Of a stretch of 64,000 bases of DNA, positions 6,001 through 51,300 are shown piece by piece. A model generated the notes under the pieces. It saw nothing but the letters and a program-made list of their open reading frames with translations, searched no databases and was not told where the DNA came from. Position numbers and translations under genes: made by a program. How positions within the stretch are numbered: the stretch's first letter is position 1; each line of letters opens with the position of its first letter. Source of the stretch: Amoebophrya sp. A120 (taxonomy: Eukaryota > Protista > Dinoflagellata); contig CAJINV010000005.1 of NCBI GenBank assembly GCA_905178155.1, positions 3,713,253 through 3,777,252 on the forward strand, written 5' to 3'.

Positions 6001-9000
6001 GAAGCTGACAATGTTGAACGTCAGGGAGCCGATGTGACAAGGCCTGGTGAAGTGCGGCGGCAAATACGCTTTTGCCGTTTCGAAGACCCAGATGACGACG
6101 AAATTCGCAATCACAAACGTCGCCAAATAGCTCGCCTTTTCCGGTAAGAAATGCACTGCGGAATGAAAAATCTGCGGATTCGCATGCGGATCCACCAACC
6201 CCTCGACGTCTTCCGGCATCGGATCTGCAACTGTGACGATTCTCCGCGGTAACCCGTACAACAGTAGTAGTACATACAATAAAGCCACGACGATTGCGCA
6301 GAGCGTCCCAATCAAGTAAAACACCGCCTGCGACGCGAGCCGCTCCACCGAACCGAGTTGCCACATGTATGGATTGTAAAACTGTCTGGGTCTGGAAACT
6401 TGTGATGCCGGGTGGCGTATCATGAAGAGGCCACAAATGCTGGCTCAGCATGACAAGCTTTTGACCTTCTAGGTGTTGCCTACTCTGCATGACAAACTGC
6501 GTTTCTGCATGACAGCAAAAGGGGGATCTTGGGTAACGTGCGTGACAGATTTAAGAGTCATGCCAGACAAGCATGACAAATCTGGCAATCTTCCAGACCA
6601 AGACGTATTTGCATTTGATAACATGTTCAAGACGACAATACAACCGGAGCTGGTCCAGGGAATCCCGATGGACTGGTGGTCTCCCAAAACCTGAGAATGA
6701 ATCTCCCAGGTCGCGCACAAAGCCGTGAAAACGGTGATAGCGAGCGGTAACTTTGTGCCTTCCGACACATTCTGCAGCCAATGTGGGATAAATCGCTGGC
6801 TGCCTCGCTCGTGCCGCCAGGACGTAACGGAAGTTGTGTAGCTTGGTCCAGGAGCTCCAACATTTTTGTTCTTCCCGTGGTCCGAAGAAGCAGTACCACC
6901 ACCAGCCCCGCTTCCACCAGAATTTGGGTTTATTTTATCTTTCGCTCTCATCTGTTTCACGAGCTGCTGCACTGTGATTTTCGGTCTTTTCAGCAAGAGA
7001 CCACTACTTGATGCAAAGTAGCTGCTCTGTCTCGTTCGCCGTCCTGGCGCGGTTGTCGTAGTTCCGTTCATCTTGTTCCGTCTTTTGTCACAGCAGCTAC
7101 TGCAGCCGCGAAAGGAGAGCGAGTTTTGCGACGGTGCGGCCTCGGCCAGGACGAGTAAGGCTTTGGACTTCAGCAAATGGTTTTCCAAGTGTAGATCGTG
7201 CAACTCCTCGTCGTCCATCATTTTCTGTTCAATTTCCTCGTGATCGTCATCCTCCGGATCGACAAGTTTGCCCCGGATTGAGGAAGCGGTGGACTGGTGC
7301 GCCGGAAATAAATTCACCAAAGAAGAAGTCGGATGTGACAAATGGTGTGCCGTAGTCGGCGCACTGAGGACTTCTTGCATCGTGTTTTGACTGTTTGTTC
7401 CAGTTGTTAACGTTACCCCAGGCTGCACGAGCTGCGGGACTTCTAGCGCATGTGACGTTCCAAGTAGAGCACTGGCATCGGGGGCAATACTAGTGGCGAG
7501 ATGACGTCGCGTTGGTGTTGCAGAGTTGATGCTTTCAACGTAATTTGTTCCATATTGGCGTTGGACATTCGTGTTCTCGCCAGGAGAGCTGGCGGCGTTT
7601 GGTCGATAGTTTCCTGATAATTCAGTGGCCTGCTCTTTCGACGAAAAAATAAGCGCGGAAGGCGCTGGAGATGAGCCCGGCATATTTTCCAAGACTGTTG
7701 CTTTGCCCGTCTCGGCTCTCAAAGGAACGAGGGGCGGCTGCAAGTTCGATGCAAGAACTACAGGGGCGGAGAGAAGTCCGGGACCACCTGCTATACCTTC
7801 GCCAATCGTTGCGGCTGGCGCTTGGTAGCCCTGCTTGTTTTCTTCTCCACCGTTACGCCATCGTAACGGTGGCGTCCCGTTCCTTTCACATCCTGCTTCG
7901 TGATCATGATGTGAAACCCCTACTTCGGGTTCGTCTTTTCGCGATGAAGAAGACCGCACCAGTGGGGTTGACCGTAGAATGCTATCAGCTACCACGGAAT
8001 TTTCACTGTCGATCAATCCGAGGACTGCGAGGTGGGACTCATCGACGTTTCGTGCAGGTTCGATTCCCCCTTCGTACTGCGGGCCCGATGAAGATCCGCC
8101 TTCAATAAAAAGCTCGCCGCGGCAGCTTTTGAGCTCAGGTTGAAGTAGCCCAGAGCCAGCAGATCTCGTCCCCTTTTCTTTCTCTGCCGATGCCGAAAGA
8201 ACTTCTGGTTCTGTCCCCGACCTACTATCATACTCTTGAAACGTAAAGGCGCGACACATCGGGTCCTGTGCAGGGCTGCGCGTGCTTTGTTCGATGGCTG
8301 AGCTCTCATTTCCACGGCGCTGAGGTTGTTCCGCCGAATCAAGAGGCTTACTACCTCCTCGCTTGTCTCCGACATATTGTCCGGCCGAATTCCGACCAGG
8401 GGCAGCTTCATCTCCGGAAGGACTCAGAGAGAAGTTAGTCTGCTTTTGCTGCCGTTCCTGTGATCTAGTTTCTGATGCAAAGGAGGGTCCTCTGGACCTT
8501 CGGGGGTGAGGACCACCCGCCAGTTGTCTGCGAAACCGGTCCATGGAAGCCGCAGCGGCAGCATCGCCCTGCAGCCCGAATCCGGGCAACGACGTCATTT
8601 GCTGCGACTGCGTCGTTCCCCCGCTGCTGTTGAATAGGGAATCCGAGAGCCGCGGCCGGGATTTCTGGGCGTCGTTATAGTCATAGATGGACACTGTGTT
8701 CCGGTTTTCGTCTTCGTATTCATCGTTGTGGTCGCTCTGAAGATCCTGAACAACAGACGACTCCCGGGAAAGCGTGCTGCCCTTGCGGGAAGTAGATGAA
8801 AATTTAAACCTCACTCCGCTGGATGCGGTTCCACCCCCTGCGACGTTCTTCATCCGATCAAGCGTGCGTTGGTTATGTTGCGGCGTCGTGCTAGCACTAA
8901 TTGGCATTAGGTTTCCGGTCGCGGTGTCAAGCTCCTGCTCCCCGTAGTCGGCGTTGTTCACGACACCGCGGCGACGCGGCCCAGTGCTGTCGCCGCGATA

Positions 9001-12000
9001 TAGGCCTGAACGCCGACGCGCCGGCAAACCGACGAGAGAGCCAGTCCTATCGCGCCGACCTCTCATCCTGCTCAGGTGGCTGCTTGTATTGACGTTCGTA
9101 CTTGCTGGGTTATTACATTCCGCGCTGTCCACTCGAATAAGGCGTGATGTTGAGCTTGTTTCTGGACCAGCAGCACGCCGGTCATGATCATCGGTGTCTA
9201 AAATATCCAACTCAAACGACACATTTCTGCTGTTTTCTCTCGACGAGTAGGAAAAATTTTCGCCGTGGATCAGTTGCAATGGCAACAAATCTCCTTGTTC
9301 CATGTTTGTTTGGTCCTGATTATGATTCAGATTATCAGCGTCAGAGTCACTATAATTATCGGAGTCAACGTCATTGATTCCGTCCGAATGCGAATGCGAC
9401 GATCCCATGTTGCGGTCCTGGTCTGTGCTATCGACATGAAGGTCGCCTTATGAAATGTAAAAATGTCTGGGTCTGGGAGAATGCAAGTTTGTCATGCTTG
9501 TCTGGCATGACTCGGGAGTCTGTGTTGCATAGGCACGAAAAAGCCTTCTTACCTGTCACGCAAAAACGCAGTTTGCCATGCGGAATACGTAAGACATGGC
9601 AGCCAAAAAATTTGTCATGCATAGCTGCGTATTGCAGTGCGTCTATCATTCACTTTTAGCATTACAAGTTTCCAGACCCAGACATTTTTACATTTGATAC
9701 GCCTTCTCCTTCAAGACACACTCCACCGCCACCACGCTGAGTTCTTGTCCTATTCGTCGGGGTGTCAGGCGGCAAGGAAGACATGTCCACTTTCCCTACT
9801 ATCTTTCTACTGGTGTAGTTATCCGCAGCACTTCGGCGGCGCTGGACAGAACGGGAAGAAGTAGATGGTGCCACGGGGCCGGTTCCGGAGGATATATTTG
9901 AAGCACATAATTTCATCGCCGCAGCTGCAGCACCACCTCCACCTGACCTTGAGCTTTTGGACGAGCTGCAAAAATTTTGCAGGTTGTAAACACTTCGTTG
10001 ATTTTCATCCTGAGGTGGACCTCCGCCATCGTCGTCGTGGAATCTTGTTCGGTGGTGGTACACGCGGTCCTGAATGTTTGATTTGGAACTCGTCCGGGAA
10101 CCGCGAGTTAAAAATGTCGCTGACGTTTTGCCTTTCTGATAATTATTCTGGTGATCATGTTGTTCTTGAGACGAAGTGGTGTGCAGCGCCGGGGGCTTCG
10201 TATTAGCGCCTGCTTCCTGTTGATGGTGCGTAGAAGTAGATCCTCGTGACGCCGACCCACTTCTTGTTTTCAGAAGTGCACCGGTAATTGGATCGAACTG
10301 GTGGGCGACGGGGGCTCCTGACGGAACAATACCCGGAACAACTGCTCCCCCTTCGATGGACGTGGTCGCTCTCTGCCGTCGAATTATATCACCAACCTTC
10401 CGACGCGCTTTGCTGCTCCGCGAGGTCCGTTGCTGGCCGATCACTGCTCCGTACCCTACGGCGGAAGTGCTACTGCTAGCTGCTCCGCCCCCAATATTGA
10501 TCGTCGCTCTTGATCGTACCGGAGCGGGAGGAGCTCCTCTTGAGCCAGAATAAAGGCCGCCCTGGTGTGAATGATTTATGTGATCCTGCCTGCTGGTAGT
10601 GCTTTTCGGCAGCTTTTCCCTGGGTGACGGCTCGAACAAAGCCCCCAAGCCCGTCGAGCTGTGTGCCCCTTGAGAATTCTGCGGCCGCTTGATCTGCGAC
10701 AGAGCGAGCTGCCGTGTGTAGTGCCGTGGAATGGATAAGCAGTTTCGAAACAGTGCCTCCTGGTGGTCCACCTGTTCTCGCTCGCTAAAATACTGCGCAG
10801 GATCCGGCTGATGTGCAGGAGCTACAGGAACTGTTACTCCTGCGGCGCGATCCGTTGGACTGGCCAGGAAAAGAACAGGAGCTGCAGGTGTAGTAGAATT
10901 GTTTACACTGGTGACTCCGGCGGCTGCAGCCGTTTCTTGCTGTAGTAGTTGCGACGATTGAGCTCCTCCGGGACCAAGCTGCACACAACTTCCGCCAACA
11001 TTCGATGCGCTGAGCCGAGCCGCCGGGGCAGGTGGCCTACTGCTACTGCCCGAATAGGAATACGCAGCCCCGACCGCAGATGTTTCTTCCCCTGGCGCGG
11101 AGAGCTGCTTCTGCGTGGCTGCACCGGTGCAACCAACTTCTTCTGGCGGCGGCACCGGGGGCGCCGCAAGTCCGGAAATTGGTTGGTCCTCCGGTCCCCC
11201 TGTAGCTCGCAGCACCGACCTCTCCGCGGTTTTCGATCTCGGGGGGAAGGACACAGACGTTCCCTCCACGATTGGCACATTGCCTGAAGTCCTGCTCGTC
11301 CGCCGAGCTGGTGGCAGCTGTGCCAGAGGTGCCGCGCTGCCACTTGCAGCCCCGCCACCACCTCCGGGGCGACTGGTGGTTGTTGACGTTGATGTGTAGA
11401 ACAAATTCCCTGGCCCCGTGCTACTTGTCGCACCGCCTCCCGCTGTGATTGTTGTAGCCCGGAGATCATTGCTTTCATCATGACCCTTTGCACTACGAGC
11501 AGCTCCCGGCGCGGCGGCGCCGCGGGCCCCCGCATACTGGTTCTGCGGGCTGTGCTGTTGAAGATCATTTTTCCTATTCCCGCTTCTCTCTCCTGTTCTA
11601 ATAGATGATGAATTCGGGTCGTCAACAAGAACGACCGCACCTGTGCTAGCTGCTCCAGCTCCGTTTCTGCCGGGAATAGAGCTGCCCCTTCCACCGAGGC
11701 CGCCGCTGCCACTGCTCTCGAAGGCAGCACTGTTGTTCCAGCGCTGCCGTGCCAAGTCATCCTCTTGTGTTACCGAACGCCCACGCTGGCTAATATTCTG
11801 TGGCGCACCTCCAACAGCGTAGAAGGTCTGCGCTGCAGCTTGTGAAGATGAATCTAGCGACGATGCGGCGACTTGCTTCTCACCTCGAGGATGTTGGCCT
11901 CTACCAGTGCGTTCGACGTCGGAGTCGAAAGTTGCAGCCTCGTCTTGACCTCCGGCAGGCCCGGCCCTGGATGTTCCACTAAAAATCGGCTCGCTCTTAC

Positions 12001-13391: not shown

Positions 13392-16300
13392 CTATTGGAT
13401 GAAGCACATTCTGAGCCCGATCACGTGGCCCGCGAGCGCAATCGGAAGGGAGACCAAGGGGAACCACTCATAGGGCGGGAAGAAAAAAAACACTGCTGCA
13501 GGTTCGTTTTGGAAGAGTCGCAATCTGAACATGATTTATTCTTTCGCGCATAACTTTGATAATTTTCATTCAAGTATTTCATCTCTACCATTGCAGGATT
13601 CCATCACTTACAGTAGTTGACGTTGAGCACAATAGTATTCCACCAAACGAGGCACTTGAAATTCAAATTCGAATTCACGGCACAATAAGCATATCCGAGG
13701 AGTGACGATTTGTGAATCTTCTCCAACAAAAATTCGCAAAATATACGGTGTCGGCAGCGAGAACAGGATCGTGAAAATGACCGAAAAGAGTAACAGCAGC
13801 CCGATTACATTGAAGACAAACAGCACCACTTTCTGCTTGATGTGAAGCTGCGGAGCGATTGTTGATGCAGGTGATATTAGTGGCGCAGAATTTCTTTCCG
13901 GACTGCCAGTGACGTCCTCATCGCCGAAGAAAAATGAGGTCAGCGGTCTAGTAGTGCTTGCTTTATTTTTTCCCCCAGCACTCCCCAGTCCAAGCGCTGA
14001 CAAAATGGTAGTTCCTGCTGTAGAAACGAGAGACGAAATACTTGCAATTACGTCATGATCTGCTTCGCCGTTCTTGGTTGATGATGATGTTGTTGTGCCC
14101 CTGTCTGAGTAGAAGAAGAAGGAGTTCTGATTGGGATTGTGACAGGAAGACGCTGTGGTCGATACCACGTCATCCACGTCAGTTTGCGGATTTTCCTCTT
14201 CTTTCCGAGGGGATTTCTCGTCATCTGAGGAGCTACTCGACGTGGGGCCCATGTTTAAGCTCACCTGGAAGAAGTAGGAAATCGAAATGTTACTGATACC
14301 TAGTAAGTTGCGTTTTTCAAAAGGATGTCAACATCTCCATGTATTTCTCTACCTATATGGATATCTCCTGCCCGTCAGCATGAAAATGACCACAAGAGCG
14401 AAAGAAGTGAATTGTATTTGTATATCAGCTTGGCTCTACAACATTCACAATCGATACCGCGAAGGCGAGAATTCCGGTGATGATGTCAAAATTGTGTCCG
14501 TGGACCGTCATTTGCTGCGGAACAACCCCCTGATTGTGCCCGACGTGCAGCAAATACTCCAAAAACACCCGGAACACCTGGTAGCCCACGATCAAACTGG
14601 CGGGCACTTTCCGCGCAATCTGCTCGCCCCAGAACGAAAACCCAAAGAAGAAGACAATCGCGAGGCAGCCGAAAAACAGGAGCACAATGAAGACCGCGGG
14701 GAACGAGAGAAAGCAGGAGGTCAGAGCGTGGGTGAGCAGGAGCCAGGCTGCGATGCACCTGTTTAGTTGTTTCGAAAAAAGGTCATCTTGTGCCGGTTGG
14801 GGTTGTCACGTAGGGCCAATTAGTCTTGTTCAACAACAAGCAGTGAGCTCATCTTCATCATCTTCATGGTAGTTCATTTACTGGGCAAGGTGATGAAATT
14901 GAAATTGTAATTGTGATGAAACATGTATTTTGCATTTACTCATCCTACCAGTGCAGCGGGCGCTTGACTGTTTCGTCTGTGGCCCCCATGTGGCAGATGG
15001 ACACAAACGCGTAGACCGACACCGCAAACACGACGAGCATCGCCGCCATGTAGGCCCCGGAGGGTTCCGGCACGTGCGTTCCCGGAAACAGGGTGACCAC
15101 CCGTTTCGGCGGTACCTTCTCGCTGTTGAAATCCGGGAAGAAGTTGTTGACTTCCGCCTTGGGCTTGTCCTCCAGGATGATCGTCTGCTCGACCCGGTGC
15201 TTCTCGAGATTGCCGGGCACTTCCAGTGTCAGCGCCGGCGTGTGCGGATCTTCGTGGACCTCCACCCGGCCGAAGGCCTGGGGCTATTGCAAGGAAAAGT
15301 AGTCCCCCTTTCCCATATTGAAAGCGCATCCTACTGAAAATTTGCGATGCAGATTTGTGACCACAAATCGGGTCTGCCTTCCAAGAATGCACATTCAGGC
15401 TGTCGGCCACGTTATGCGGGCGATTTGTCATGCTGTAAGGCCTACAGAGTAGCCGGCTGCCATACCAAATATAGCCGCCGGGGCGGAGGTAGTGAGGTCG
15501 TGGGCGTTTTCTTGCCGGCCGTCGCCTTGGCCGCGGCTTTGCTTTTTCTGGGCCCGCCGTACCGCCGTGAGTAACGTTAGGCCGCACGGTATGGCGGCCG
15601 CTTGATAAACGTCGCAAATTTTCGCAAATTCCCGATATTCCTTTCCGAAAGCCAGCCCCCATGCTATGAGGCCGATCCGGGTGCCACGGGGGGCGCCCAA
15701 AAAGCGAAGAAAAATCGGGCCCGTAGCATGCGGATTGGCTTTGCGCGTCTGGCGCGCTTTTGCTTTTTTGCGTTTTTATTTTTCCCGTCGGCGCTTTTTG
15801 CAAAGCCCCCCAGGCTCTGAAACCGGCGAAAATGCGGCCGCTTTCGCGGCCGCCCAAAATGCTCCGAAACCGCGGCCGTGCCATGCTGTTTCGCTGTTCT
15901 GATTTTGGGTGCGTTGTTTTCGGGCGCCCTTTTGGGCGTCCTAAACCGCCAGAAATCAAGGCGGCGGGCGCCCCAGAAGGGCGCCCCTTTTGCTGGCTTC
16001 TCTGCGTCGTTTTACCCAGCGGCGATCGATAGAATCCGCTGGCGATTCGGTGCCAGGTAAGCCAAACAGGCTTGCACGCTGGGATCTTTTTCATGCAAAA
16101 AAACTCTCTACAGGCTTCAAAACTGCCGGTCGTTTTTCAGGGGAGATGGCAAAAAAACTCCCCGGTTAGAACCGTTCGGTGACCTCACTACATACTAGGC
16201 GCCTAGTATACCAAAAGGCCCCCGCCAAAGCCAGGACCACGCATTCCTCGTCTAGCTGCAACACAAGTTTGATTTGTCTATCCAAATCCAGCATCAGAAG

Positions 16301-16756
16301 TTTCGTTTTGATATGGGGAGGGTGGATTTTTCCTTTTGATAGGGGCCCGAAGTCCACCAGGGAAGGCGGATTCAAAATGCTGGAGAAGACGTTGGAAATC
16401 TTGGTGCCAATGGCTACTTCACCGCCTGTTTCCGTTTCCTCGGCGAGGACCACAGAAGCGGGAGCTTCATTTGAAGTTGTGCTTTCTCTCGCAGCTGCCA
16501 ATGATGCTTCTTCTTTAGCCGTGGTTTTCATCTCTGCCAAGGAGGACGCCGCTCCTGCTGCTCCTGCTGTAGTACCTGCTCGTACTCCCCCGGTAGTCGC
16601 ATGAGCACTGGTCGACGCCCCGCCCAGGCTCAGAAAGGCTGACGCCTGAGACGAGTCGCTGCCAGAGCCGCCCATTTGCAGCATGATGTCAAACGGAGCC
16701 AGATCCGCTGCCGTTGACCCGCCCAGCAGGCCGACTACCTCCTGCATTTTTACCAT
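13392..16756 (-). CDS. Multi-exon polytopic membrane protein resembling a bacterial-type hypothetical membrane family, with low-complexity N-terminal extension
   Basis: Exons ~16756-16314, 15278-~14949, ~14758-14440, 14264-~13700, ~13480-13392. Motifs LIVGYQVFRVFLEYLLH, PQQMTVHGHNFDIITG, FNVIGLLLL..SLPTP, PYEWFP..ALAGHVI. The last junction is unresolved. Confidence 0.7.
15284..16313. mobile_element. Degenerate introner (ends TATTG.../...TTTGATA, direct repeat TGGGG) enlarged by a nested ~732-bp repeat
   Basis: TGGGG at 15279-15283 and 16314-16318; removing 1035 nt joins IHPP|QAFGRVEV in frame; motif TTTGTCATGC near 15424. Confidence 0.65.
15463..16194 (-). mobile_element. Non-autonomous Helitron2/Helentron-like repeat, copy 1
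   Basis: Collinear with 31558-32297; 11-bp asymmetric inverted repeat GTAGTGAGGTC (15489-15499) / GACCTCACTAC (16181-16191); hairpin CCGCC-GG-GGCGG (15475-15486) outside the IR; no TSD seen. Confidence 0.7.
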
Positions 16757-21927: not shown

Positions 21928-22428
21928 TAAAACAGCAGGCCAACGCCAAACGCCAATAAATTAGACCTCCTCCGTGGCATCTTGATCTTCATGACTTTGC
22001 CTCGGGTAATATCAAGCAAGGGCTGGTTGTCTCTCTGAGTCTGGCTCGAAGACACCGATCATTATACAGTCTGCGCAGCATTATATTCATTGTGCAGAAG
22101 AGATTTCGGATACCAGAGGGGAAAAAGTTGATGGACCTGAAATGAAACATAAAAGCGCAGATGAGAGGACCACGCAGGACGAGCTCCTGGTCTTCTACGA
22201 AGCAGTATGAGCCTTTCAGCTGCACTGGCGAGTAGAAGTTTTACCAACCTCGGCAAAAGACCTGCAATAGCGTGCTGAAACTCTGGTCGGAAGCGCTGTC
22301 ACTCTAGGTTGCTGCTGTAATCTCTAATGCTGATGCAAGTTGCGGTATCTACAAACTGCATCCACTTTATTAGATACTGCTTCTTGAAACAAGGAAAAAA
22401 CAGAAGGCGGCAAGTAAGTAGTCTCGAG

Positions 22429-23986: not shown

Positions 23987-27546
<3,560 letters not shown>

Positions 27547-30888: not shown

Positions 30889-31557
30889 TGGTACAGCGGA
30901 CCGCACCTCCAGCTGCCACGCAAGAGCGATACTCCCACTCCTTGACTGAATAACCTCCTTTCTGTTCACGTCAATCCCGCACCAAGCACGTCGGAGGCGA
31001 ACACGGAGTGGAAGTGCTGCTCATCTTCATCTTCTTGAAATCGAATTTACGAGAGTTCCAGAGCATACGGGATCTCATGATACTCAACATGTTGACTCAT
31101 GTGCCTACAAAAGGGCAGCTCCGCTCACACCCATCCAGTAAGTAGTTGTTCGGCGTCTCATCAATCGCTCAAATTCGCTTGTGCAGCTCTTTCGTAAATA
31201 TGGATCGTCCGGTTCAGATCGTCCTCTACAACAGAGCTGAAGCTGGCAGCTGTTCCGGCCCCCCGTGGCCGTGAAACACAATTTGGAAGTTCGACTCGTC
31301 GCGTAATCGTTCCAACTTACTCTTTTTGGTGGGGTGTCAAATCGACGGAGAACAACAAGAGCAACAGATTTGTAATTCGCTTTTCTTTTAAGTACTCGAA
31401 GTCGAACTACAAAATTTGAATTGAGAAGCAGTGCCATTCCATTGCAAAGCATGGCACTACGACACGATATTTATTCGGCATTTTTCGATGGAAAAGAACG
31501 GAATCCGAGGCCATCTTCGCTATCAATCTGGAAACATAGAATAACAAGAAACCAACG

Positions 31558-32297
31558 TACCAAATATAGCCGCCGCGGCGGAGGTAGTGAGGTCGGTGGC
31601 GCTTTCTTGCCTCCACCCTGGCCGCGGACCGGCAGGGGGTCTGCTTTTTGTGGGCTCTCCATGCCGCCGTGGGTAAGGTTATGCCGCACGGCATGGCGGC
31701 CGGTTGAAAAACATGACGCACTTTTGGCAAATTTCCGAAATTCCTTACCGAAAGCCAGCCCCGACGCTATGGGCCCGATCCGGGCGCCACGGGGGGCGCC
31801 CAAAAACCAAAGAAAAATCGGGCCCATAAGATGCAGACTGGCTTCGCGCGTCCGGCGCGCTTTGTCTTTTTTGCGTGTTTATTTTTCGCGCCGGCGCTTT
31901 TTGCAAAGCTTGTCCCGATTAGAAAACGCCGAAAAGGCGGCCGCTTTCGCGGCCGCCCAAAATGCTCCCAAATCGAGGCCGCGCCATGCGGTTTCGCTGT
32001 TCTGGCTTTGGGCGCGTTTTTTCTGGGCGCCCTTTTGGGCGCCCCAAATCGACAGAATCTCACGCGGCTGGCGCCTCAGAAGGGTGCCCCTTTTGCCGGC
32101 TCCCCTGCGTCGTTTTATCAATCGGCGACCGATAGAATCCGCAGGCGATTCGTTGAAGACAAAGCCAAACAGGCTGGCACGCTTTGACTTTTTTCATGCG
32201 GAAAAACGCAGAACAGCATTACAGACTGCCGGTCGTTTTTGCCGGGACATGTCAAGAAAACTGCCAGGTTGGAGCCGTTCGGTGACCTCACTACATA
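31558..32297 (-). mobile_element. Non-autonomous Helitron2/Helentron-like repeat, copy 2 (intergenic)
   Basis: Collinear with 15463-16194; IR at 31584-31594 / 32284-32294; hairpin CCGCC-GC-GGCGG at 31570-31581; T-rich 5' flank on the minus strand. Confidence 0.7.
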
Positions 32298-32482
32298 AAA
32301 TCATGATCATCCGCTGCCTTATTCATCATATCCCCGGGTATTTGCATTAGCATTTGGGACGGGCTAGTTGTCGTTTCCCTCGCCGTTTCCTTGTCGTCTC
32401 CCTTGCCGCCTTGTTGTCGGTTCTGGGTAGCGCCACCCTTGTCTTTCCCAGAGTTTTGTAACAATTAAACCACCTAGCTAGG

Positions 32483-32660
32483 GTATCCGAGTTAGTTGTC
32501 CGTTCGGACGACTAACTCGGAATTTGCCGCGGGCGGCCTTTTCCCTCGGGCATCGCGGAGGTCCAAACATGCCAACAGCCCACAAGGCAAAGGCTTCCCG
32601 CGTGGTCAAATTCCGAGTTAGTCGCCCGCCCGCACGGGCAGGCAATTTCATCGGATATAC
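32483..32660. repeat. Foldback mini-element with three copies of CCGAGTTAGT(C/T)G
   Basis: Hairpin 32487-32520 (15/16-bp stem); 32505-32526 is also a 21/22 inverted match to 32607-32628. Confidence 0.75.
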
Positions 32661-32663
32661 TGG

Positions 32664-34352
32664 TTAGTAGTTGGTCCAATTGTTACTCTCTTCTCGTTCT
32701 GCACGTGTTAGCGGACGCGGCGTTCTCCACCAAACCACCTGGTGCCCAGCGACGACATTCGGATTCGATGGGCTCCCGCTTGTGGGCACCCGCGCAGCGC
32801 TTTCATCTGATCCCACGACATTGACACGATCGTCATCGAAATCATGCTCGATGTCTTGGATCTGACTGTTTGGGTCCTCCGTCGCCTCGCCCTCCTCCTC
32901 GGGCCTCGGATTACGGCCACGACACAAACGGCTAAGCATTCCACGACCAGGAACATAGTCCCTCCATCCTCTAGCGGTCGTGAACGTAGTTTCTAGCATG
33001 CTTGCTGTGGTTGCACCGGCCAAACCGGCAGTGCCGTTGCTCGTGCCGCCATCGCGCTCTTCGAAGAGCTGCTTTTCGTGCTGCGGTCGGCCGTGGTGCC
33101 CCTCCTCCTGCGGGTCCTTGCGCGTACTGTTGTACACGTACACCACAACCTCGGCCGGGGTCAGTTTGGCATCCCCATTCGCATCCACCCCGCGCGGCGG
33201 GGCCGGACACTCCGTTTTATCCAGCACATGGTTCTTGTCCGTGTCCAGCGCGCTGAACTCCGCGATTATCTCGGCGACGATGGACTCCAGCTCCGCGAAC
33301 ATCCCGGAAGTGCTACTTTCCGCCGCAGCCACTGATCCGGCAGGAAGACCAAACAACGGGATCGAGTCAACCAGCTGCCGCATCATCAGGCGAGTCAAGT
33401 CTTTGGACACCTGATACGAATGGTTTTTAATTTGGATTTTTCAATGTGAAGTTTCACGTTACAAACACAAACAGGCTTAATAGATCAGGCTTGAATTTAC
33501 AGTTAGTTTATTGCTGCTGTCACTTGACCACCCCAACTGCAGTTCCTCCTCCTACAACGAACGCAAGAACATCTTTTTATTTATTTAGGTTCTTACAACT
33601 TCTAAGAGTAGAACTCGTCGCCTATTATACCCGATCAATGTTGTCCATTTCCAATTTCGCGTTCAGTTCGAAAAATTCCGCGCGGACGCGTTGGCGGACC
33701 GCGTCGTCCAGTCGGTCCTGCGCCTTCAAGCGGGTACCCTTATCAAATGCAAAAGTGTCTGGGTCTGGAAACTTGTGATGCTGGGGGGCGTCTCATAATG
33801 AGGCCACAAGTGCTGGCTCAGCATGACAAGTTTCTGAGCTTCTAGGTGTTGCCTATTCTGCATGACAAAGACAAACTGCGTTTCTGCATCACAGAAAAAT
33901 GGAGCTCTTGGGTAACGTGCATGACAGATTTAAGAGTCATGCCAGAGAAGCATGACAAACATGCATTCTTCCAGACCCAGACATTTTTACATTTGATAAC
34001 CCTCGTTGAGGAGCAACATGTTCGTCAACGTCGCCAGCTCGGTGTCTTCCTCCTTCGCAACCCCAACCGTCGTTGTCTCCTCCAAAAAAGACGTGCTTGA
34101 GAAGGGGTTCGTGTCAGTGGAAGGCACGGGAGAAAAGGAAGCGGTAGTGGAGGTTGCGGTTGGGTCGTTTTGGTCTTCGAGTTCGTACGTTTGCTTCAGC
34201 TGCGCTATGGAATGGAAAGCTGTTGCTGCACGACCTTTCGTGCCATACCCATATGCGGGAAAAAAAAAGCTTCGTGGTTGTGGAGATGCCGTTACCTTGT
34301 TCCGCGACAAAGAGGCAAGGAGAAGGTAGAGAAAAAGAGCAGTTGAGAGCAT
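32664..34352 (-). CDS. EF-hand-containing hypothetical protein, possibly secreted; start uncertain
   Basis: EF-hand-like loops DTDKNHVLDKTE and DANGDAKLTPAE; exons joined across a family A element (LNEG|TRLKAQD) and a probable GT-AG intron (IDR|VSKDL); hydrophobic MLSTALFLYLLLA start. Confidence 0.6.
33741..33998. mobile_element. TIR introner, family A; direct repeat ACCCT
   Basis: 30-bp TIRs; ACCCT at 33736-33740 and 33999-34003; interior alignable to 6368-6620; removing 263 nt gives an open frame. Confidence 0.93.
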
Positions 34353-34839: not shown

Positions 34840-35488
34840 CTATGAAAAGGTAGGTACAACACTCGTGGTCGAAGACAAACGTCCAATCCCAGCGTTTGCG
34901 AACGCGCGGAGTGTCACTAGAAGATCACTCCACGATCTGTAACACGACCAGGAAGATGGCTTTGGTCGTTTCTTTCGCTTTCCATACGTCTTAACTTTCG
35001 ATGGATTCTGCATAGCCGCAGAGGAGTCGATCGTCACCATCTCGTCCGGCGACTATCCTATGTCAAATCTTCACCCTCGAGGATCATCAAGTTGCGATAA
35101 AAAACGCATTAAGTAACTATTTTATGCAGAAAGCTGGTTCTTGCTGCCAATTACAGATCTACGCATAAAATTGTAATTGAATGCGAGCAGGAAGGTCTAT
35201 ACAAAAAAAAAATTGCACATAGGATAGCTCATCGGAAAACTGGTCGATGGCGGTGGCGACCCCGAATGCCCCCAGAACCAAGGTAAGACAGGTCATTACG
35301 TACGCGGAAAGGATGCACGTATGGAGCCAAAAATCAAAGGGACTTGACAGACCCGCTTTCGTTTTCAGTGTTCTTGTCGGACCACTTTTCAACAACATTG
35401 CGGCACTTGTGCAAGGACTCTGTCCCAGCGCCGTCCCCGTGGTCCTCCCGCGGTCGATTTTGCTGCGCCGCGTGCGGAGCAGCGACAT
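34840..35488 (-). CDS. Small hypothetical membrane protein, 2 predicted exons
   Basis: Hydrophobic stretch FWLHTCILSAYVMTCLTLVLGAFGVA; ORFs 35159-35521 and 34840-35040 join in frame across an IR element. Confidence 0.4.
35054..35226. mobile_element. Degenerate introner, family D ends (TATCCTATGT)
   Basis: IR tatcctatgtcaaat / attgcacataggata; removing 178 nt keeps the frame (GA-AG possible); same terminus as the element at 41807. Confidence 0.65.
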
Positions 35489-36481: not shown

Positions 36482-37892
36482 TCAGTCTTCCTTTACTTCC
36501 CCGATAGGCAGGTGGCCACAGTGATTCTCGATGGCCATACACACATCGTTAAACAGGTGCTCCACAACTAGATAGCCTTCCACGTCGAAGTAGCGGCTGA
36601 CGCACTCGGCGTTGACGGTGGGCTCCGTGTTCCGGGAACCCCGCACGTCGATGATCAGTTCCGAGGTGTTTTCTTCCATTCCGATCGAACCAGTATGCCA
36701 AGAAAGGTGCTGGTTGCGGGGGTTGTTTGAATCAAGTCGAAAAGTTCGTCTTTTTTGCAGAACAAGTACTAGTACACGTAAGCGGCCTCCTTATTTTCGT
36801 GCTGAACAACATGACCGACATCAAACAAAGCATCTCGCACAGACCAGAACAAGACCATGCGATCGCCTCGTGGGCCCTTGATGCATTCAAGATTTTTGTT
36901 AAAAACATGTACTTGCAGCACAAATAGGAGCTTCTTGTACTTGATGATCCTTATCCTTTGGATTTCTTGCAGCGACGTAGATCTAGATGTATAGACACAT
37001 TCTTTCATGTTGAGCATGACATCAACATGTTATGAGCTTGCCGCCGATGAGCTTCATCACATGTCGAAACCTTAAGTTTCGTTCTGAATTAGACTTGATG
37101 CAAAAGAACTCCCTCACGCCCACCATTGTTGCCGGGATCATAAACGTGCACCGAGTGGTTGTCAAAGTCCCGCAAGGAGTAGACGTTTGCCGGCCCGAGC
37201 GCCCACATGTCGATGTAAGTGACAATCGCTGCGATGAGGGTATACAACAGTACGAACGGCAGCAACGTGTCTTTGTCCTGCGGGAATTTCAGCCGCACCA
37301 CGGTATAGGTGCCCAGGGCGCAGGCCAGGACGGAGCAGAACAGACGGATGTCCAGCCAGTAGGTGCACTCCTCAAAACCGGCATCCTGCATGATATCCTG
37401 CAGCATATCGCAGACGCACTTGTGGTGGTTATGCAATGCAAATTTTGCACCGCTGCACACTCGTACAAGAAAACGCATAGACAAAATCAAAAAAGGCACA
37501 GCACATTCCTTGCCATACTCAAACAATAGGTTGCATCAAAAAGACTTTCGTCATGCTGAAACAGCAACATCTGTACGTTGCGTGCGGCGAGAGCACTACA
37601 TTCATTGTGGATAGCAGTCGGGTTTGGAGTAGAGCGCCGCGGTTCGGTTGATATCCGGACTGTCCGCGACGATGTCGCGCACCATGTCATCGGAAAAGTA
37701 CTGCGAATAGTAGTCCACAGAAGCACCTCCCTTGGTCCCGCTCGACTGTTTGTGGGTTTTCTGGTCATGCTGCTTGTTTTTCTTGTTTTTCCCCTTGTTC
37801 ACCTGTTGCAGCTCGATCTCGCCGCCGTGGTGGTCCCCATTGTTGGAGGTGGAACCCCCCTTGTTCTTGTTGCCATTGTTCTTCTTTCCCAT
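36482..37892 (-). CDS. SPCS2: Signal peptidase complex subunit 2 (SPC25/SPCS2)-like
   Basis: GFEE..WLDIRL..LAC, KFP..LLPFVLLY two-TM pattern and C-terminal VSRYFDVEGYL; three predicted exons, second junction uncertain. Confidence 0.7.
37430..37613. mobile_element. Degenerate introner in the SPCS2-like gene; direct repeat GTGGT/GCAGT
   Basis: Ends TATGCAATG / CATTGTGGATA; internal TTTCGTCATGC; removing 189 nt gives KPDC|HKCVCD in frame. Confidence 0.65.
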
Positions 37893-39438: not shown

Positions 39439-42400
39439 TCAGAAGGAGAAGCCACCACCAGACTGCAGTTTCCATTCTTTACATTTCGAAAGAAAGCTAT
39501 GCGTCACTTTCAACATTCTTGACTCACAAAAAATCAATTCCCCTTCCATACAGACTTCCAAATAGAACTGCGAGTCGCTCCCCCCCGCCGGGTCGCCGGA
39601 CAAACGGTCCAAGTAGCTGATTTTCGTGCGCGGCTCCTTCACGGTGTACGCCCAAATGTCCGAGGAACTGAACGGCCGCAGACTGAGCGGCGGCACCGCG
39701 GCACTCGACGCTGCACCAGCGCCACCCGTAGTTGCGGCCGCCCCGCCACCAGCTGCCGCAGCACTCGCCCCCGCGTTCAACTGCGCGATGGTCTTTTCAA
39801 AAAAACCCAAACTGGGTCCCGTGTGGCGCAGGTTCAGCCGCCCGCGCTCGGCCTCCGCGAGCAGGAGACCCGCCCCGGCCTCGCCAAACTGGTTGCCTTC
39901 GAGGTCTAGGGTGAGAAAATGCTGGTCCCTTGCGCGGCCCTTGTCGCGGATAGCGGCGGCGAGTTCCAGGAGTTCTTGCTGCGTCACAATGCCATTCTGC
40001 CGCAGGGAGACGGTGTGCAAACTGTCATTAATTATTTCGATCCATAGATTGTTTTGACGCTACAATTTTTCCTCCTCGGCTTAGAAATTCAAATGAACAT
40101 AACCATGTATGCTTACTTTCACGCATCTCGGGTACAGATGAACGTCGAGAAATCTATAATATGCAATGGCGTTCATCTTCATCTGAAGTATTTCATCCGA
40201 TTCCGAATCCGAGAAAAAATGAGACTACGGCGGTTCATAATACGAATTGCTGCATCATTTATACACTGAATTGGGATTTTTCGCGAAGTGTCGGGCGATG
40301 TGCGTCCCCGCGCCCGCGCAACAGTTGTCGGAGAAGTCCAAGACCTCCAACACCGTCGGCTCCTCTCCGGCAAGCATGTTCATGAGACTCTGTACCCCCA
40401 CCGCAGAGATGGCGTTGCTGCCCAGCAGCAGTGCGCGCAGCGCCGGACTGGTCGCCTGCACGCCTCCCCGCGCTTCCCACTCCGCCAGGCAGGTGTCGGT
40501 GAGGCAGTTGCCGGTGAGGTCCAGGTACTCCAGCGTTTTCGTGGCCAATATGACCTGCAGGGCGCCCTTGTCAAAGCACTTCACGTTTCGCAGCGACAAA
40601 AACCGCAGGCTGTCTGTATCAGAGTAGAAAACTTCCCCCCCATGTGTCATGCTTAACCGACTTTTATTCCTTTTGGCACCTTTATTCATCCATGACAGAT
40701 TTCGGAAGGGGCCCAACCTACAGTACTGCAGCTCGCGCACGATGAATCCGTCATGCACAGAGTGCAGGTGTGCAGCTCGTGCCGGCGCTTTTACTTTTAG
40801 TTCAACTGCTGTCCATGGCATATACATGCGAAGGAAGGGAGCGACGAGTTGTGCACTCTGATAGGTCGGGGTCTGCATTTCGGACACAAACCGGTGGATC
40901 GCCTGCACCGGGTCTTTCAGTTTGCCGTGCAACACCAGGTATTCGCACAGGGAGGCGTAGAGAAAGCAGGTGTTCGACGACATGGCATCACTTTCCCAGT
41001 CGACGACTGTTTTCTCGTCCGCTTTTCGCGGGAGAAACAAGTACTCCACGCCAAACACCTTGCGCTTGTTCCGTTCCAGCGCCATCTGCTGCTCGCCGGT
41101 GGCGTCGTACCCTGCCAACTCGCTGAAAATTCGCCGCTCCTCCTTCGGTTTTTTGGAGCTCGAGCTGCTGCCCCCGACCGACGCGGTCCCGGCGCCCCCC
41201 GCGGAGCCCCCGAGTTTCTGGTTGATACCGGACTGCGCGACCGAGGGGGTTTGCGGTTTGCTGCCGTTTGTGGGGGAAGCGTTGCTGGCGTCTTGCTGCT
41301 GCTCCGCCACGCTCGCCGGCATCATGGTGCCGTCGGACTGCGCGGGCTTCTCGCTCAGCCCGCCCTTGGATTTCAGCTTTTGAACGAAGAACTTCTGGCC
41401 ACGAGGGTTTTGCCGGACGTACCGGACCAAAACCTCCTGCTCCGCGGGACCGAGCGTCGGCAGGGACTTTTTTCTCTTCGAGGGGGAGGACGGGTACTGG
41501 TATGCAATTGTCGTCGTCGCAACCGTCTTGTCCGAACTGGAGGCGAAAATGCTGTCCTTTTCGTCCGCGTCGGAACCGTCGGCACTGTTTCGGACCCGCA
41601 CGGCCCCGCCCTTCCCGTCCGTTTCCGCGGAAAACAAACTTGGTTCCGGCTCGCTCATGTACGGGCTGGCGAAGTACTGCACTTTGATCTTCGCCTTCTT
41701 CTCGATGGCGATCTGCAGCGTCTCCAGCACCCGCCACGCGTGGGCGGAGGTGAGGGTGATTTGCGACAGGTCCCAGACGGAGTTCGTCATCAGCCGGGGC
41801 ATCGCGTATCCTATGTAAAAACGTCCCAAGCTCCAAGGTCAAGATGGCGAATCGGCTAGACAAATCCACAAGTTTTGGCTGTCTTCCATGACAAATTTGG
41901 ACTCGTAGTGTAGTGCTGTTTGAGCTACCTCAGCAGCATCGCAGATCTCGTATATCATGCTGATTGGAGCATGACAAATTGCAAAACACGAATAGAAAAT
42001 GCTTCTCATGGGGCTCCGCATGAGAAACATTTTCAGCATGCAGATTTGCATTACAACTATGGGGTCGTGGGAACGTTTTTAAATACGATATCGCGTAGAA
42101 CTGGTTTTCCACGAAATTCGTGTCCACCCGCCGCTGGAAACGCTCCGCCATGTCTGCGAGGGAGACGAAGCCTCGGTCGTGCTCGAGGTGAAGGAGAAAG
42201 GGGACGATCTGGATTTTTTTTTCGCAATTTTCTTTATCTTTATTCGCATGCTTGAAAAATCTTGCACTACTACAAGAACGCAAAAAAAAAAAATCGCAAA
42301 TTTTCTCTTAAAGTTCGACGATAACAGGGATAGGGAAAAATAAGATGAAGTCATCAACAAAAAAGCAAAGTGAATGAAATACCTCGTCCAGCATAGAGAA

Positions 42401-44584
42401 ATGGGATTCCGCAGCGTACGTGTCTTTCGTCATCACTGCCTGCGCCAGCGCATATCTCAACCCCCGAATCGTTACGCCGTCCTCTGGTAAACCGAACTCC
42501 ACCCACTTGCGCCACCAGTCATAGAAATAAGCATAGCTGCCATTCAACCCGATCCCGTTCCGGAAAATCACCTTGTGCAACCTCCCTGATTTGCCCTTCT
42601 TCGGCGTTTTTGCAGACGCGCCGCCAGCTCTGGATGGCGAAGAGGAACCCCCTCTCGACGGACTCGGCGAAGCCGACTTGCTTTTCTTCTTTTTTTTCGC
42701 CGATGAGGGGGAAGTATTGTTGTTATTTCCGTCCTCATCGTCTTCTCCGGGTGGAGGCGGGGCGATTACCAGCTCTTCCTGCTCCATACTGGCGTAGTCC
42801 TGTTCGAGCTGGTTGATCCGTTCCTCCAAATTTGCCGTTTCCAACCCGACCGACTCGATCCGAGAAACCACGTCCTTGGCCAAGACCGTGTCACCACCAG
42901 AAAGTTTTTTCGGAGACGAAACGAGGTAAATGTCGGGCGAGGCCGAAGAGGCGTAGTTTTGCCCGGTACCTGTAGTATTCTTCGTCTCGTCGTCGTTCCC
43001 AAAAACATCAACGGTTGTCTCTTCCGCGCTCGTCACCGGTATCTCGGGCAGCAAGTACGCTTTCGCGCCCACACACTTCCTTGACGGGGACGAAAAATCC
43101 ACTTCCTTTTCCTCGCCCGCAAAGAGTGTTGAGTCTGGTTTCCGCGGTGCTGGCGCTTGCTCCGGCGTCACTGCCTCCAGCAGCTTCACCAGCAAGCGGC
43201 CCAACGCCCACCGCTGCGCCTTCGCGAGCGTCTTCTTGTCCTTCGGCGGAGCGTCGTCGTCTAGAGCGGTCGTGCCCGTGGGGGAAGAAATTTGGTTGTT
43301 TGGTTCGTCGTCCCCTTGTTCACCCCCTGCCTTCATGGTTGAACTGTTGAACATTTCCGGTGCGCGTTTTTTCGCCTGCGAGCGGATGATTTCTGGGACG
43401 AGGAAGTGCCCGAGCTCGCGGATTTTGTAGAGCTGGACGTCCACCCACCGCATCTGGCCCTTATCGAACAGCTCGGGCAATCCGAACTGCTTAAAAAACA
43501 ACGGCAGTTTCGACAGAAACAGCTGCGGGAGCTGTACCTTGTACTGCTTCCGGCACACCGCGGACAAGTACAAGTTTTCGCACTCCAAGAATGTCACTTG
43601 CAGTTTGTGCTCTCGGTAGTGGTTCATCCCCAAGCGGCGCTGCGGGTGCTGCGGGTCCACGTTATCCTCGTCCGTGAAGTTTCTCGCCTTCGCCTGCAGC
43701 ATATGACAGTGCACAACTCCCCCTCCCCCTCATTTGTCATGTAAAATCCCAAATCCAGGCACTGCCTTGTGGCACTGTTTGCATGACAAATTTCGCACCC
43801 TCAAACAGTACTACAATCCGGGGGCTGAAGATTTGTCATGCGGAAGCCACATTTCTGGCGTTGCTTGTGTTGCTGCTCATGCCATTCAAATGAGGGGGAG
43901 GGGGAGTTGTGCACTCTCATACAGCAGGTTCCCCTCGTTGTCCTCGCTGTAGTTGCCCCTGCAGAGCCAGATGTTCTCGGGCCGGAGGTCCAGCATGCAG
44001 AACCCCTTCGCCTCGAGTTCGAGAATGGCATCAAAAACCGCGTGCACGATCTGCACCAGCCGGAACGCGGACAGCTGCTGCCCGCGGCTCCCGGGGGGCC
44101 CCTCCATCTCCCGGGCGAGCGTGCGCGCGCCGGGGGGCAGGGCCTTGTAGATCGCGACGAGAAGGTTGTTGTCCTGAAGCGCGACGTGCTCCAGCGTCGG
44201 CAAGGCGCGCAAGCCGGACAGACTGCGGAGCACGTAAAATTCCCGCATTGTCAACTCCGCATCGACGGGGTTGACCTGTGGGGATTTGTAAGGTGTAGAA
44301 GTGCTGCAATATTCACCGTGCATTTGACGCTCACACAGAATTCTTGCTCAATGTCAGTCATTCGTAAAATAAAACTGTACCCAGATAAATCGAAGCCATT
44401 TTCGCTCGCCGCTATACACGTCGACCGTTTCTAATATGGCGTGCCGGTGCGGAAACGCGGTGACGACGTTTTTCACCAGGAACCGCCCGTCGTAGGTTTT
44501 GTACTGCACGGAGTTGCAAAATTTCTCGTAGTCCCGCGTCTCCGAGAAGGTTTTCACTGCCAGAAGAATCTCCGAAGCTGCCAT
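39439..44584 (-). CDS. Large multi-exon protein with a degenerate kinase-like N-terminal segment and C-terminal RNI-like leucine-rich repeats; 3' end uncertain
   Basis: MLDLRPENI (catalytic-loop-like); LRRs LEYLDLTGNCL, LRALLLGSNAI, LEVLDFSDNC, LHTVSLRQNGI, LTLDLEGNQFG; the ORFs join in frame across three TIR elements and GT-AG introns. Confidence 0.75.
40617..40863. mobile_element. Family B introner hidden in frame and stop-free inside ORF 40255-41829
   Basis: TIR tatcagagtagaaaact / agttgtgcactctgata; three CATGAC-type motifs; 247+5 = 252 nt = 84 codons; weak direct repeat GTCTG/GGTCG. Confidence 0.72.
41807..42090. mobile_element. TIR introner, family D; direct repeat TCGCG
   Basis: TIR tatcctatgtaaaaacgt / acgtttttaaatacgata; perfect TCGCG at 41802-41806 and 42091-42095; removing 289 nt gives NQFYA|MPRL. 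Confidence 0.9.
43702..43921. mobile_element. TIR introner, family B; direct repeat CAGCA
   Basis: ~35-bp near-perfect TIRs TATGA(C/G)AGTGCACAACTCCCCCTCCCCCTCATTTG; perfect CAGCA; removing 225 nt gives GNLL|QAKAR. Confidence 0.93.
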
Positions 44585-48307: not shown

Positions 48308-51300
48308 TCAAAACTCCGGCCAATCGTACCAAATACGTTTGGACCCATCACCGTACTCCTCGCTGAACAAGTCCCAGCTTCCGCACGGCCACGCCAAAAA
48401 TTTTGTCTTCTTCGCCGAGTTTACTTCCGCTTGTTCCCCCGCCACGAAGTCCATCCGCTCCCCCGCATCCGCATCCAACAACGACAGGCAGCTATTCACG
48501 ATGGCGGTGTTCCGGGCCTGTATTCAAAGGAAATTTCCTGCACGCGCACAACTTTGAACGCGTCTTCTGCATGACAGAGAGTTTCTTTAATTCTATTCAG
48601 CATGGCAAGCGATGCGCTCCAGGGGTGCTCTAGATTTGTCACGCATTTTGCACGTGTGCAGGAAGTTTGTACTTATTGCATAACCTGGATCGGCAAGCCA
48701 CACAAACTCGCCCCACATTCGGTTATCTCACAGACCCATAGCTCCGGCTCCTTCATCGTCTCCTTGTTCCAGACCACATGGTAATCAAACCGCCCGTTGC
48801 TGGGACAGTTCAACTCCGGCCACTCACTGTGGTACCAGGTGAGCCACTTCCGCGTCAATTCCTTCGCCTGCTCCTCCATCTTGGCTTGAAGGATTCCGTC
48901 ACCACCCCAAATCGCTTCCAACGCCTGCTTCGGGGTCTGGTTGATGTGTCCCGTCATATCCAACCCCGCGTTGTTCACGTTCGACTCGATCCCCATGTAG
49001 GCGACCTTCATGTCAAAATCCCCGTTTCGCGTCAGGTCCATTTCCTTTTGGACGTTGTAGAAGTTGTGTTCCGCACAGTTTGAGATTTCCGCCGCGTCGT
49101 AGCCTGAAAGCTTAAATAAATGCTCCATGTCGCGTATCTGGTCCCGCAACTCTTGGATCTGTGCGTCAATGGAATTTACTTGTTTTTTTTTGTAGATGTC
49201 AAATACTTACAAAAGTTAAAAAGCTCATTTTACTCTGCTACTTTTTCAGAATTCATTGTATACGGAGTTCGCGTTTTTCGGAGCTCCTGGGTATTCGTAT
49301 TCATAAAGCAAATCACTAACGACCGCTGAGTCAAGGAAGACAGCAAATGTACGAAAACTATTGATCTTTACCTTTTTCTCTCCTGTCGAATAACTTTCCA
49401 TAACCGTGCCATCATCTTCTGCTGGCACCATCACGACATCGTCCTTTCCGATGTTCACTGCAACAGCATCCCGAGTCAACAGCTTTTCGTTTTCCTTCTC
49501 CAACACATCCAACTTCCGCTTCACGTCCACCAACGGCTTCTCCAACCTCTTCATCTCCCGCCGCTGCACAAAATCCGTCGGAACCACCGCGCGACTTTCC
49601 TTCGGCACCCCGAACGCGTGGATCCGCAGTTCCGCGATGCGGTCCGGCACCAACTCCTGCACGATCACCGACGTCGCAATCTGGCCCTTGTGGCAGCAGA
49701 TCATGGATTCCAACTTTTTCGCCAAATCCTCCGCCCCGTGCCACACTTTGACGTCTACGCCCATCCAGGAAAAACCGAGTTTCACCACACCGGACATCAT
49801 TTGGCTTTCTTCTTTGGTCGTTCCTTGGACAGCCTCGTCGTCAGGAGGAGGTAGGGGACTGTCGTGGGCTTGTTGGACGAGGATCTGCTCCCCTGCATCA
49901 CCCGCGGCACCCGAGTTGGTCGAGGCGGGGGATTCATCACTGGTTGTACTGTCAGAGTTCAGAGTGACGACCGGCTCCAGCTGCTTCACTAGAGAAATAC
50001 AACCCTTCTTGTAGCTCATCTTCTTCGCCTGATCTACTTCACCAACCAGCGGAACACTCGGCACTATCGGTTCATTTCCCCAGACGTTCTTCCGGATCAT
50101 TCGCAGTGCGTTGATGGCGTTTTTCGCGGCCTTCAGACTGTCCTTCTTGATACTGGTCGCGTACACCCGGGTGGTCGCCGGGGTTTTCAATTCCCGATTC
50201 TGGCACCCCGCGTTGTAGTACTGTTTCCCACACAGTTGCCGGTACAAATGCGAGGGCGCCGGGTACCGGGTATGAATCTCCGTGTTCTCCATTTGCCGCA
50301 TGAACTCGAAAAACACGGACTCCTTCACCATCCCAGCGTCACTTTTCGGGTGCCGGTTTTCCGGACCGAACTCCCGCTCCGCCGGCCACAAGTAGTACAG
50401 CCCGCACTTCGCCTTCCCGACGAGCAGATCAGCGAAGGGTCGACGCTTGCTGCAGCTCTTGGTCGTAGTGGAAGATGGATCATGCTGGTCAAGAACATGC
50501 TCCTGCAGCTGCGCCAGCTGCTGCATCTTCACGACGCTTGTTTGATGTAGTTGCTCCACCTTCTTCTTCTCCTCCGGCAAATGCAAAACGTGCTGTTGCA
50601 CGAAACTCGTCAAACACTCTTCGTCGAAGCAGAACAGTTCGTAACATTCAAAGCGATTCCCCACCGCCGCCTTCACCCCGGCCTGCTCGATCAACGAGTA
50701 AACCGGCCACTCCTGGGTGATTTTGTACTCGGACTTTCGCTTGTCAGACCAGTAATCGAACCAACGCAGGATGAACAGGCTGAGATCGATCTTGTTTTCC
50801 ACAGGAGCCAGTTGTTGCTTCTCGTCAACACGGATTTTGTTTCCGTCTTTCTCGGCTTTCCCGTTCAGGAGTTGCTGGTGGTCGACATCAACCATCTCAA
50901 CCTCGGTGGTCCCCGTTAATTCCACGGACTGCAACAGCTCGACATTCACCTGAAGGAGTGGGGGATACTAATAGATGCTATACGCATCTTGGTTGACACA
51001 CAACAGTCACTCACTGGCGTTTTTATTTGCCATCAAAAAGAAAAACAAAAAGCATATTGCAATCATGTTGAACAAAAGTTCTTTGGTATAAGAGACTAAA
51101 TTTGTGCAACACTATCTAGTACCTTATCGTACACCCGATACTGGAACTTTTCATCCACGTAGCCCGATCCCGCCTCCACGAAGCAATACTTTTCCGCCGG
51201 GACCACGACTAAACCCTTGACCACAGAGTCCGGAATCTCCGTGTTGCGCTCGTAGAGAAAGTCGACCACCTTGCCCTCAACCCAGCCGTGCGCGAGGCCC

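Follow-up and report, generated by a model that had tools for sequence, protein, structure and literature searches.

Introners of Amoebophrya sp. A120 are likely removed at one fixed position without the usual splice signals

Protein-coding genes in a 64,000-nucleotide (nt) stretch of the Amoebophrya sp. A120 genome (contig CAJINV010000005.1, positions 3,713,253 to 3,777,252 of the forward strand; hereafter the window) are interrupted by short elements bounded by terminal inverted repeats (TIRs). These elements are the introners published for this strain in 2021 (PMC7789003). The system is already known; what we add is one cut position that is likely fixed and likely independent of the usual splice signals. 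Read in the direction of transcription, the intron is likely N-TAT...ATA-NNNN, cut 1 nt before TAT and 4 nt after ATA, and the removal of the element plus 5 nt at a fixed offset, with the terminal dinucleotides not defining it, is supported by gene models and homologous proteins. As the agent we favor, with a probability of roughly 55%, an altered U2-type spliceosome that removes the elements from pre-mRNA and has kept +2U and +3A of the donor.

We assign the window elements to the published system because the strain's proteins match at 100% identity (a TTLL1 exon matches A120 protein P0001 and a second exon P0121) and because the anatomy agrees with the description in PMC7789003; the original prediction, made from the letters of the window, had named them Amoebophrya introners, and this identification holds. 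In the portions of that source covered we found no difference in kind: strain, inverted repeats (IRs) that start with TAT and have an A run, 5-bp repeat, length of about 240 nt, lack of a transposase, and non-GT-AG ends are all shared. According to the same source, A120 has 66,565 introns with RNA-seq support, more than 60% of them non-canonical, and 29,850 repeated introns; the IRs begin with TAT and later carry an A run, the direct repeats (DRs) are 3–5 nt long (5 bp in the example given), and 15% of the canonical introns have the same DR/IR build. Splice sites are there called "variable" relative to the hairpin and their borders "unknown", and the legend of figure S23 places the IRs 1–5 nt from the splice sites. 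The text of PMC7789003 mentions no fixed −1/+4 register, no spliced copies that have lost repeat or stem, and no common internal motif, and its figures may show the offset; the parts of PMC11453091 and PMC9860276 covered likewise contain neither a fixed register, nor a dispensable repeat or stem, nor the motif. No later study of register, mechanism, or internal motif was found in the Amoebophrya splicing literature, in a search whose coverage mostly excludes subscription journals.

The window holds 20 elements, which we name by their first position: the 14 of the original prediction, each of whose starts has a matching far end, and six more. They are 162–325 nt long, apart from one of 1057 nt, and all sit in minus-strand reading frames of host genes that are themselves all on the minus strand. 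TAT stands at the sense 5′ end in 19 of the 20 and positions +12 to +16 are A-rich. Element 28796 has a decayed end with ACG instead of ATA on the sense strand. A 5-bp flanking repeat had been ascribed to nearly all copies; it is perfect in 6 of the 14 (7 of all 20), the others agreeing at two to four of the five positions. Among TA..TA pairs, a stem score of at least 18 combined with a perfect 5-bp flanking repeat occurred seven times in the window versus 0, 0, 0, and 1 times in four shuffles, and a score of at least 22 with a repeat of at least 3/5 occurred nine times versus 2, 1, 2, and 2.

To place the cut, three public proteins (P0001, P0121 without its first five residues, and P0128) were mapped onto the window, all donor/acceptor pairs that reproduce them were listed, and six registers were compared, with k (0 to 5) the number of upstream repeat bases that are kept. 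The three gene models yield 14 introns, 4 of them GT-AG and 10 non-canonical, and all ten of the latter equal an element plus 5 nt, exactly the deletion that had been predicted to restore the coding sequence. The lengths of 256, 263, 272, and 289 nt, quoted in that prediction as not being multiples of 3, are also right, but element plus 5 nt is divisible by 3 in 7 of its 14 elements (11 of the 20). One register fits every non-canonical intron: k=4 is compatible with 10/10, k=5 with 7/10, k=3 with 6/10, and k=1 with 4/10. Copies with mismatched repeats, proposed beforehand as a means of fixing the cut, served this purpose: 25311 rules out k=5, 26895 rules out k≤3, and 29272 needs k≥3; the almost repeat-free elements 26366–26599 and 27280–27442 permit k=4 only, according to the gene models. 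At k=4 none of the 20 elements has GT-AG termini. Among the six registers, 48521 does offer GT-AG and 9449 GC-AG, and GT-AG is possible in any register for 3 of 25 elements.

Because gene models can err, k was also scored against homologues. At the 26366 junction k=4 gives E, and E or D is found in 111 of 119 TTLL homologues, whereas the K of k≤3 and the A of k=5 are found in none; at the 25311 junction 117 of the 119 have L, where k=5 would give V; and at the 26895 junction 83 have S and only 2 the C that k≤3 gives. Taken alone, without annotation, the TTLL1 homologue residues pick k=4. For P0121 (six homologues), an E (6/6) and a D (4/6) need k≥3. The 30006 junction is backed by one of the six; the 27280 junction falls where conservation is lacking, and three others carry no information. 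Wherever k=4 can be told from its mirror, k=1, which is the case at six junctions, the form found is the one polar with transcription. A fixed offset rather than splice dinucleotides, as originally proposed, fits the ten introns and the homologue residues, with the +1 base and the 3′ dinucleotide free.

We consider it unlikely that RNA removal is real and the cut floats within the duplication, the fixed register being a small-sample effect. PMC7789003 does describe splice sites whose place relative to the hairpin varies, and only two junctions fix the register alone, one of them by conservation; yet the seven informative junctions intersect in one register, and apparent variability would arise because aligners cannot place a cut in perfect repeats.

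A hairpin with direct repeats is the classic layout for template switching. The junctions could, in principle, be artifacts of reverse transcription or annotation, the genes being dead or using nearby GT-AG sites, and an in-frame GT-AG does lie within 15 nt of 10 of the 20 elements. The other ten have no GT-AG option, however, two junctions are almost repeat-free, and every element except 40617 (19/20) introduces an in-frame stop if retained. TTLL1 moreover shows residue-by-residue conservation at three junctions, and over the query exon its identity to the A25 orthologue is 83%. We regard this explanation as most unlikely.

A larger sample came from a second assembly. The family-A end, taken from window element 28365, has at least 131 matching loci, and the 80 among the matches listed (L001–L080) are all contigs of one assembly, which has no long overlap with the window and may not be the same strain. 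Family A has 4 copies in the window and 140 in the loci listed, 121 of the latter with a perfect 5-bp duplication; for 12 of the 20 window elements those loci contain no relative. When loci of 1500 nt or more (353,850 bases in all) were searched de novo, 252 elements were counted, as against 4 in one shuffle; 189 of them have an exact 5-bp repeat and none has an exact repeat of 4, 6, or 7 bp. Under a coding model, removal of the element plus 5 nt was preferred at 162 of 238 scored junctions, plus 4 at 45, and plus 3 at 31. Relative to transcription, family A lies one way in 19 cases, the other way in 25, and unclear in 7 (n=51), by strand calls that are model-based and that differ for locus L011 between two analyses. 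At 85 perfect-repeat sites no duplication position departs from background, which indicates no target-site or proto-splice preference. As a separate observation, intron phases at k=4 are 50/32/20 over 102 coding junctions (p=0.001), with a pipeline control of 53/36/46 that shows no bias, and 7/4/9 in the 20 window elements.

The elements thus have the traits of miniature inverted-repeat transposable elements (MITEs): TIRs, a target-site duplication (TSD) of constant length, short size, no coding capacity, either orientation, and little target preference. The TIRs, the constant duplication, and the random orientation lead us to infer that a DDE transposase, supplied in trans, inserts the elements; no autonomous copy turned up in the loci covered. 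Three long copies (803–1255 nt) contain only open reading frames (ORFs) of 70–170 aa, none of transposase size, in an analysis that included no family search of those ORFs; a TIR family in A120 with ORFs resembling long terminal repeat (LTR) integrases is described in PMC12130899. The TIR had no matches in viral contigs. The TA..TA termini are those of IS3EU/GingerRoot elements, whose enzyme is an integrase-like DDE protein (PMC10045372), but membership in that group was rejected on TSD length, which is usually 6 bp in IS3EU and 5 bp in A120 introners: an exact 6-bp repeat occurs in 0/252 census elements.

TA-bounded inverted ends also resemble the internal eliminated sequences of ciliates. 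The elements might be excised from DNA, in a programmed or somatic manner, with transcripts made from element-free templates. The cut is, however, polar with transcription at 6/6 informative junctions although insertion occurs both ways, and the elements are stable features of two assemblies; we think DNA excision very improbable.

Removal would instead act on RNA, and an altered U2-type spliceosome could achieve it as follows. The inverted end would provide the +2U, +3A, and +4U of an ordinary donor, with any base at +1, and the 3′ cut would be set by its distance from ATA rather than by AG, possibly with the branch A within ATA. Since the ends are symmetric, either orientation could be spliced, and since one duplication copy's worth is removed, the original codons would be restored. 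By analogy the host's own donors support this reading, because the cut puts U, A, and U at +2 to +4 as they do: the annotated GT-AG introns of the three gene models start with GTA in 4/4 cases and with GTAT in 3/4. Table S4 of PMC7789003 has T at +2 in 9/9 of the top A120 splice pairs, and in strain A25 the IRs begin with TTA and the splice pairs are TT-NN. That source also reports U2, U4, U5, and U6 and 83 of 89 spliceosomal proteins in A120, with U1 undetected; strain Kv has GT-AG introns and U1, and U1 was undetected in both strains with the trait. Fixed branch-to-3′ distances are reported for Entamoeba, and in Fritillaria the U2 spliceosome removes non-GT-AG introns (PMC13326754; PMC11282704), so such machinery can adapt.

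Several observations weigh against this account. Half of the window elements (10/20) were chosen by their TAT/ATA motif, and conservation of TAT/ATA is likewise expected from the needs of a transposase. The register is drawn from gene models and homologue residues at seven informative junctions in two genes on one strand; summed over 16 mismatched repeats from the second assembly, coding scores are 16.0 at k=0, 23.3 at k=4, and 23.5 at k=5, which weakly favors k=4–5 over k=0–1 without separating 4 from 5. Of the ten in-frame GT-AG options near elements, the gene models rule out five, leaving 35054, 40617, 43702, 48521, and 61594. A YURAY branch motif fits poorly, with T at −9 in 8/20 and a purine at −8 in 10/20. 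The second assembly offers 102 confident coding junctions; there the +1 base is A in 36, G in 29, C in 22, and T in 15, and AG comes last in 12, with no clear canonical preference. To our knowledge, this freedom of the ends exceeds that of any known spliceosome.

Such freedom of the +1 base and of the 3′ dinucleotide suits a different agent acting on the same elements in the same register, namely a structure- or motif-guided endonuclease that makes a staggered cut around paired TAT/ATA, followed by an RNA ligase that joins the exons. We hold this as a tentative alternative, the closest to the original view that a terminal stem guides removal. Endonuclease action with ligation has been proposed for the non-conventional introns of euglenids and diplonemids; euglenid introns likewise pair at a fixed offset (+4/+5 with −7/−6) and form circles. 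The elements fold well, with z≤−2.4 in 15/19 correctly bounded window elements, and both ends are equally conserved: a 3′ U-tract excess seen in the window was not upheld at the 102 other junctions. Guidance by the stem itself, however, is not supported in the form proposed. Predicted sense-strand terminal pairing probability is at least 0.5 in 10/19 elements and at most 0.02 in 5/19 (25311, 26895, 27280, 28796, and 37430), four of which have an annotated intron; these are equilibrium predictions, which may miss protein-aided pairing. The sense strand folds better than its complement in only 11 of 20 window elements, and among the arm mismatches G-U does not significantly outnumber A-C (22:14, p=0.24; 28:26, p=0.89). 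The match of U and A at +2/+3 to the GTA donors of the host, seen in both strains, and the loss or divergence of U1 that tracks with the trait also speak against an endonuclease. It is possible, at odds well short of even, that A120 has a cut-and-join machinery of its own, distinct from the spliceosome, which clears tens of thousands of introns from its mRNAs by reading only the TAT/ATA ends and cutting 1 nt ahead of TAT and 4 nt past ATA, in which case any 5-bp-duplicating TAT...ATA transposon would be silent, whatever its site or orientation.

As two elements are almost repeat-free and several lack a predicted terminal stem, neither repeat nor stem seems required. On the folding predictions a long terminal stem looks dispensable, and the direct repeat, which is decayed in spliced copies, would be a scar of transposition that splicing does not need. 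TAT and ATA outlast the decay of both: the ten annotation-defined introns keep TA(T/C) at +2 to +4 and ATA at −7 to −5, with one ACG. A further motif lies inside the elements. Of 25 window occurrences of GCATGACA or its complement TGTCATGC, 23 fall within elements (1.9 expected), and 115 of 146 elements outside family A in the second-assembly loci carry it. Introner families that are otherwise unrelated share it, in either orientation, and for that reason it is more likely a DNA-level site, putatively one for binding, than a branch signal.

Comparison with other systems, as far as the cited sources were covered, sets the A120 introners apart mainly by their signals. Non-conventional introns of euglenids and diplonemids (PMC3935182, PMC11170887, PMC12621601) share non-canonical ends, flanking repeats, and a proposed MITE origin; their ends pair at a fixed offset that leaves the 3′ overhang longer, as predicted for part of the A120 elements, but their conserved pair is CA/TG at +4,+5/−7,−6 rather than TAT/ATA at +2 to +4/−7 to −5, and circles are reported for them, whereas the A120 introners are known here from DNA and gene models. 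The introns of Fritillaria borealis are similarly non-GT-AG and derived in bulk from MITEs, with an adapted U2 spliceosome as the model; their ends are preferentially AG-AC or AG-AT and U1 is retained, whereas A120 leaves either end free and has no detected U1. Introners of Micromonas, Aureococcus, Symbiodinium, and Florenciella (PMC9860276) are also DNA elements with TIRs and TSDs, and their splicing leaves the mRNA unchanged, as would be the case in A120; they carry canonical splice sites or co-opt them from the TSD, whereas A120 introners seem to need none.

A fixed, transcription-polar register would replace "variable splice sites" with one rule and would fix the location of any branch point or endonuclease cut, so that the roughly 30,000 A120 introners could be re-annotated without motif-biased aligners. 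It would also explain random invasion of exons, in that the signal consists entirely of the two element ends and exactly one duplication is cut away. If a spliceosome removes the introners, it does so with neither the initial G nor the final AG; otherwise there is a second pathway for splicing mRNA.

The host genes with gene models are three. TTLL1 (P0001, 747 aa; 23987..27546, minus strand, as are all features below unless stated) has two GT-AG introns and four element introns, from 25311..25620 (repeat 3/5; intron of 315 nt, GT-CT), the newly found 26366..26599 (239 nt, CT-CA), 26895..27144 (repeat 3/5; 255 nt, GT-TG), and the newly found 27280..27442 (repeat 2/5; 168 nt, TT-CG), whose register is unique by the gene model only. 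One of its canonical introns, 26680–26829, which starts with G-TAT, ends with AAA-TCAG, and is flanked by a 4/5 repeat, is perhaps an old introner that follows the same register. P0121 (380 aa, without a Pfam family; 28258..30890) has five element introns: 28365..28689 of family A (repeat 4/5; 330 nt), the decayed 28796..28968 (repeat 3/5; 178 nt, k≥3), 29272..29538 (repeat 3/5; 272 nt, GT-CA), where using the AG one base downstream would break the frame, the newly found 30006..30327 (repeat 2/5; 327 nt, TT-TT, k≥4), and 30409..30622 (repeat 5/5; 219 nt). P0128 (567 aa; 13608..16756) has two GT-AG introns and one element intron of 1062 nt from 15285..16341 (1057 nt, repeat 5/5), the 5′ end of which is TAT. 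Bounds of 15285–15464 were rejected for this element: there element plus 5 nt breaks the frame, and 15285–16341 obeys the rule. Nested within it is a GC-rich repeat of about 740 nt (15463..16210, no strand assigned) with short direct repeat flanks, of which a second copy, 82% identical, lies at about 31558–32297; the true ends are uncertain because both copies begin with the same 7 bases, and the repeat has no match in the second-assembly loci listed.

The remaining elements have predicted introns. Three belong to family A: 6368..6620 (253 nt, repeat 5/5; intron 6364–6621, TT-TG, without a gene model), 9449..9699 (251 nt, repeat 5/5; GT-GC), which is oriented opposite to 6368 and 33741, and 33741..33998 (repeat 5/5; 263 nt). 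They are followed by 35054..35226 (repeat 2/5; 178 nt), with its in-frame GT-AG close by, and 37430..37613 (repeat 3/5; 189 nt), which adjoins, upstream, an exon for the SPC25 (signal peptidase subunit) domain. The newly found 40617..40863 (repeat 2/5), whose frame stays open if it is retained, lies upstream of a leucine-rich repeat (LRR) exon; a homologue search with exon 40870–41799 gave no matches among 4818 candidates. Further along are 41807..42090 (repeat 5/5; 289 nt, AT-CG), 43702..43921 (repeat 5/5; 225 nt), 48521..48682 (repeat 4/5; 167 nt), whose GT-AG option requires a one-base shift, and, beyond the range first described, the newly found 61594..61887 (repeat 4/5; 299 nt).

In the second assembly, some family-A elements enclose long inserts, with short direct repeats but without a long ORF (L027 3001–3972, 972 nt; L004 1296–2550, 1255 nt), and a short family of 118–126 nt is present (L001 1374–1492, L029 977–1094, L055 3675–3800), the true ends of which lie further out because the inverted repeat runs into A4/T4 flanks. 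Within the otherwise all-minus-strand gene cluster of the window, 17477–18751 is GC-rich (62–64%), has long open frames on both strands, and is possibly a repeat or retroelement remnant. Finally, a lone 29-nt inverted repeat, with arms that are 86% complementary and 80 nt apart, lies at 32498–32635 near the 3′ end of a gene.

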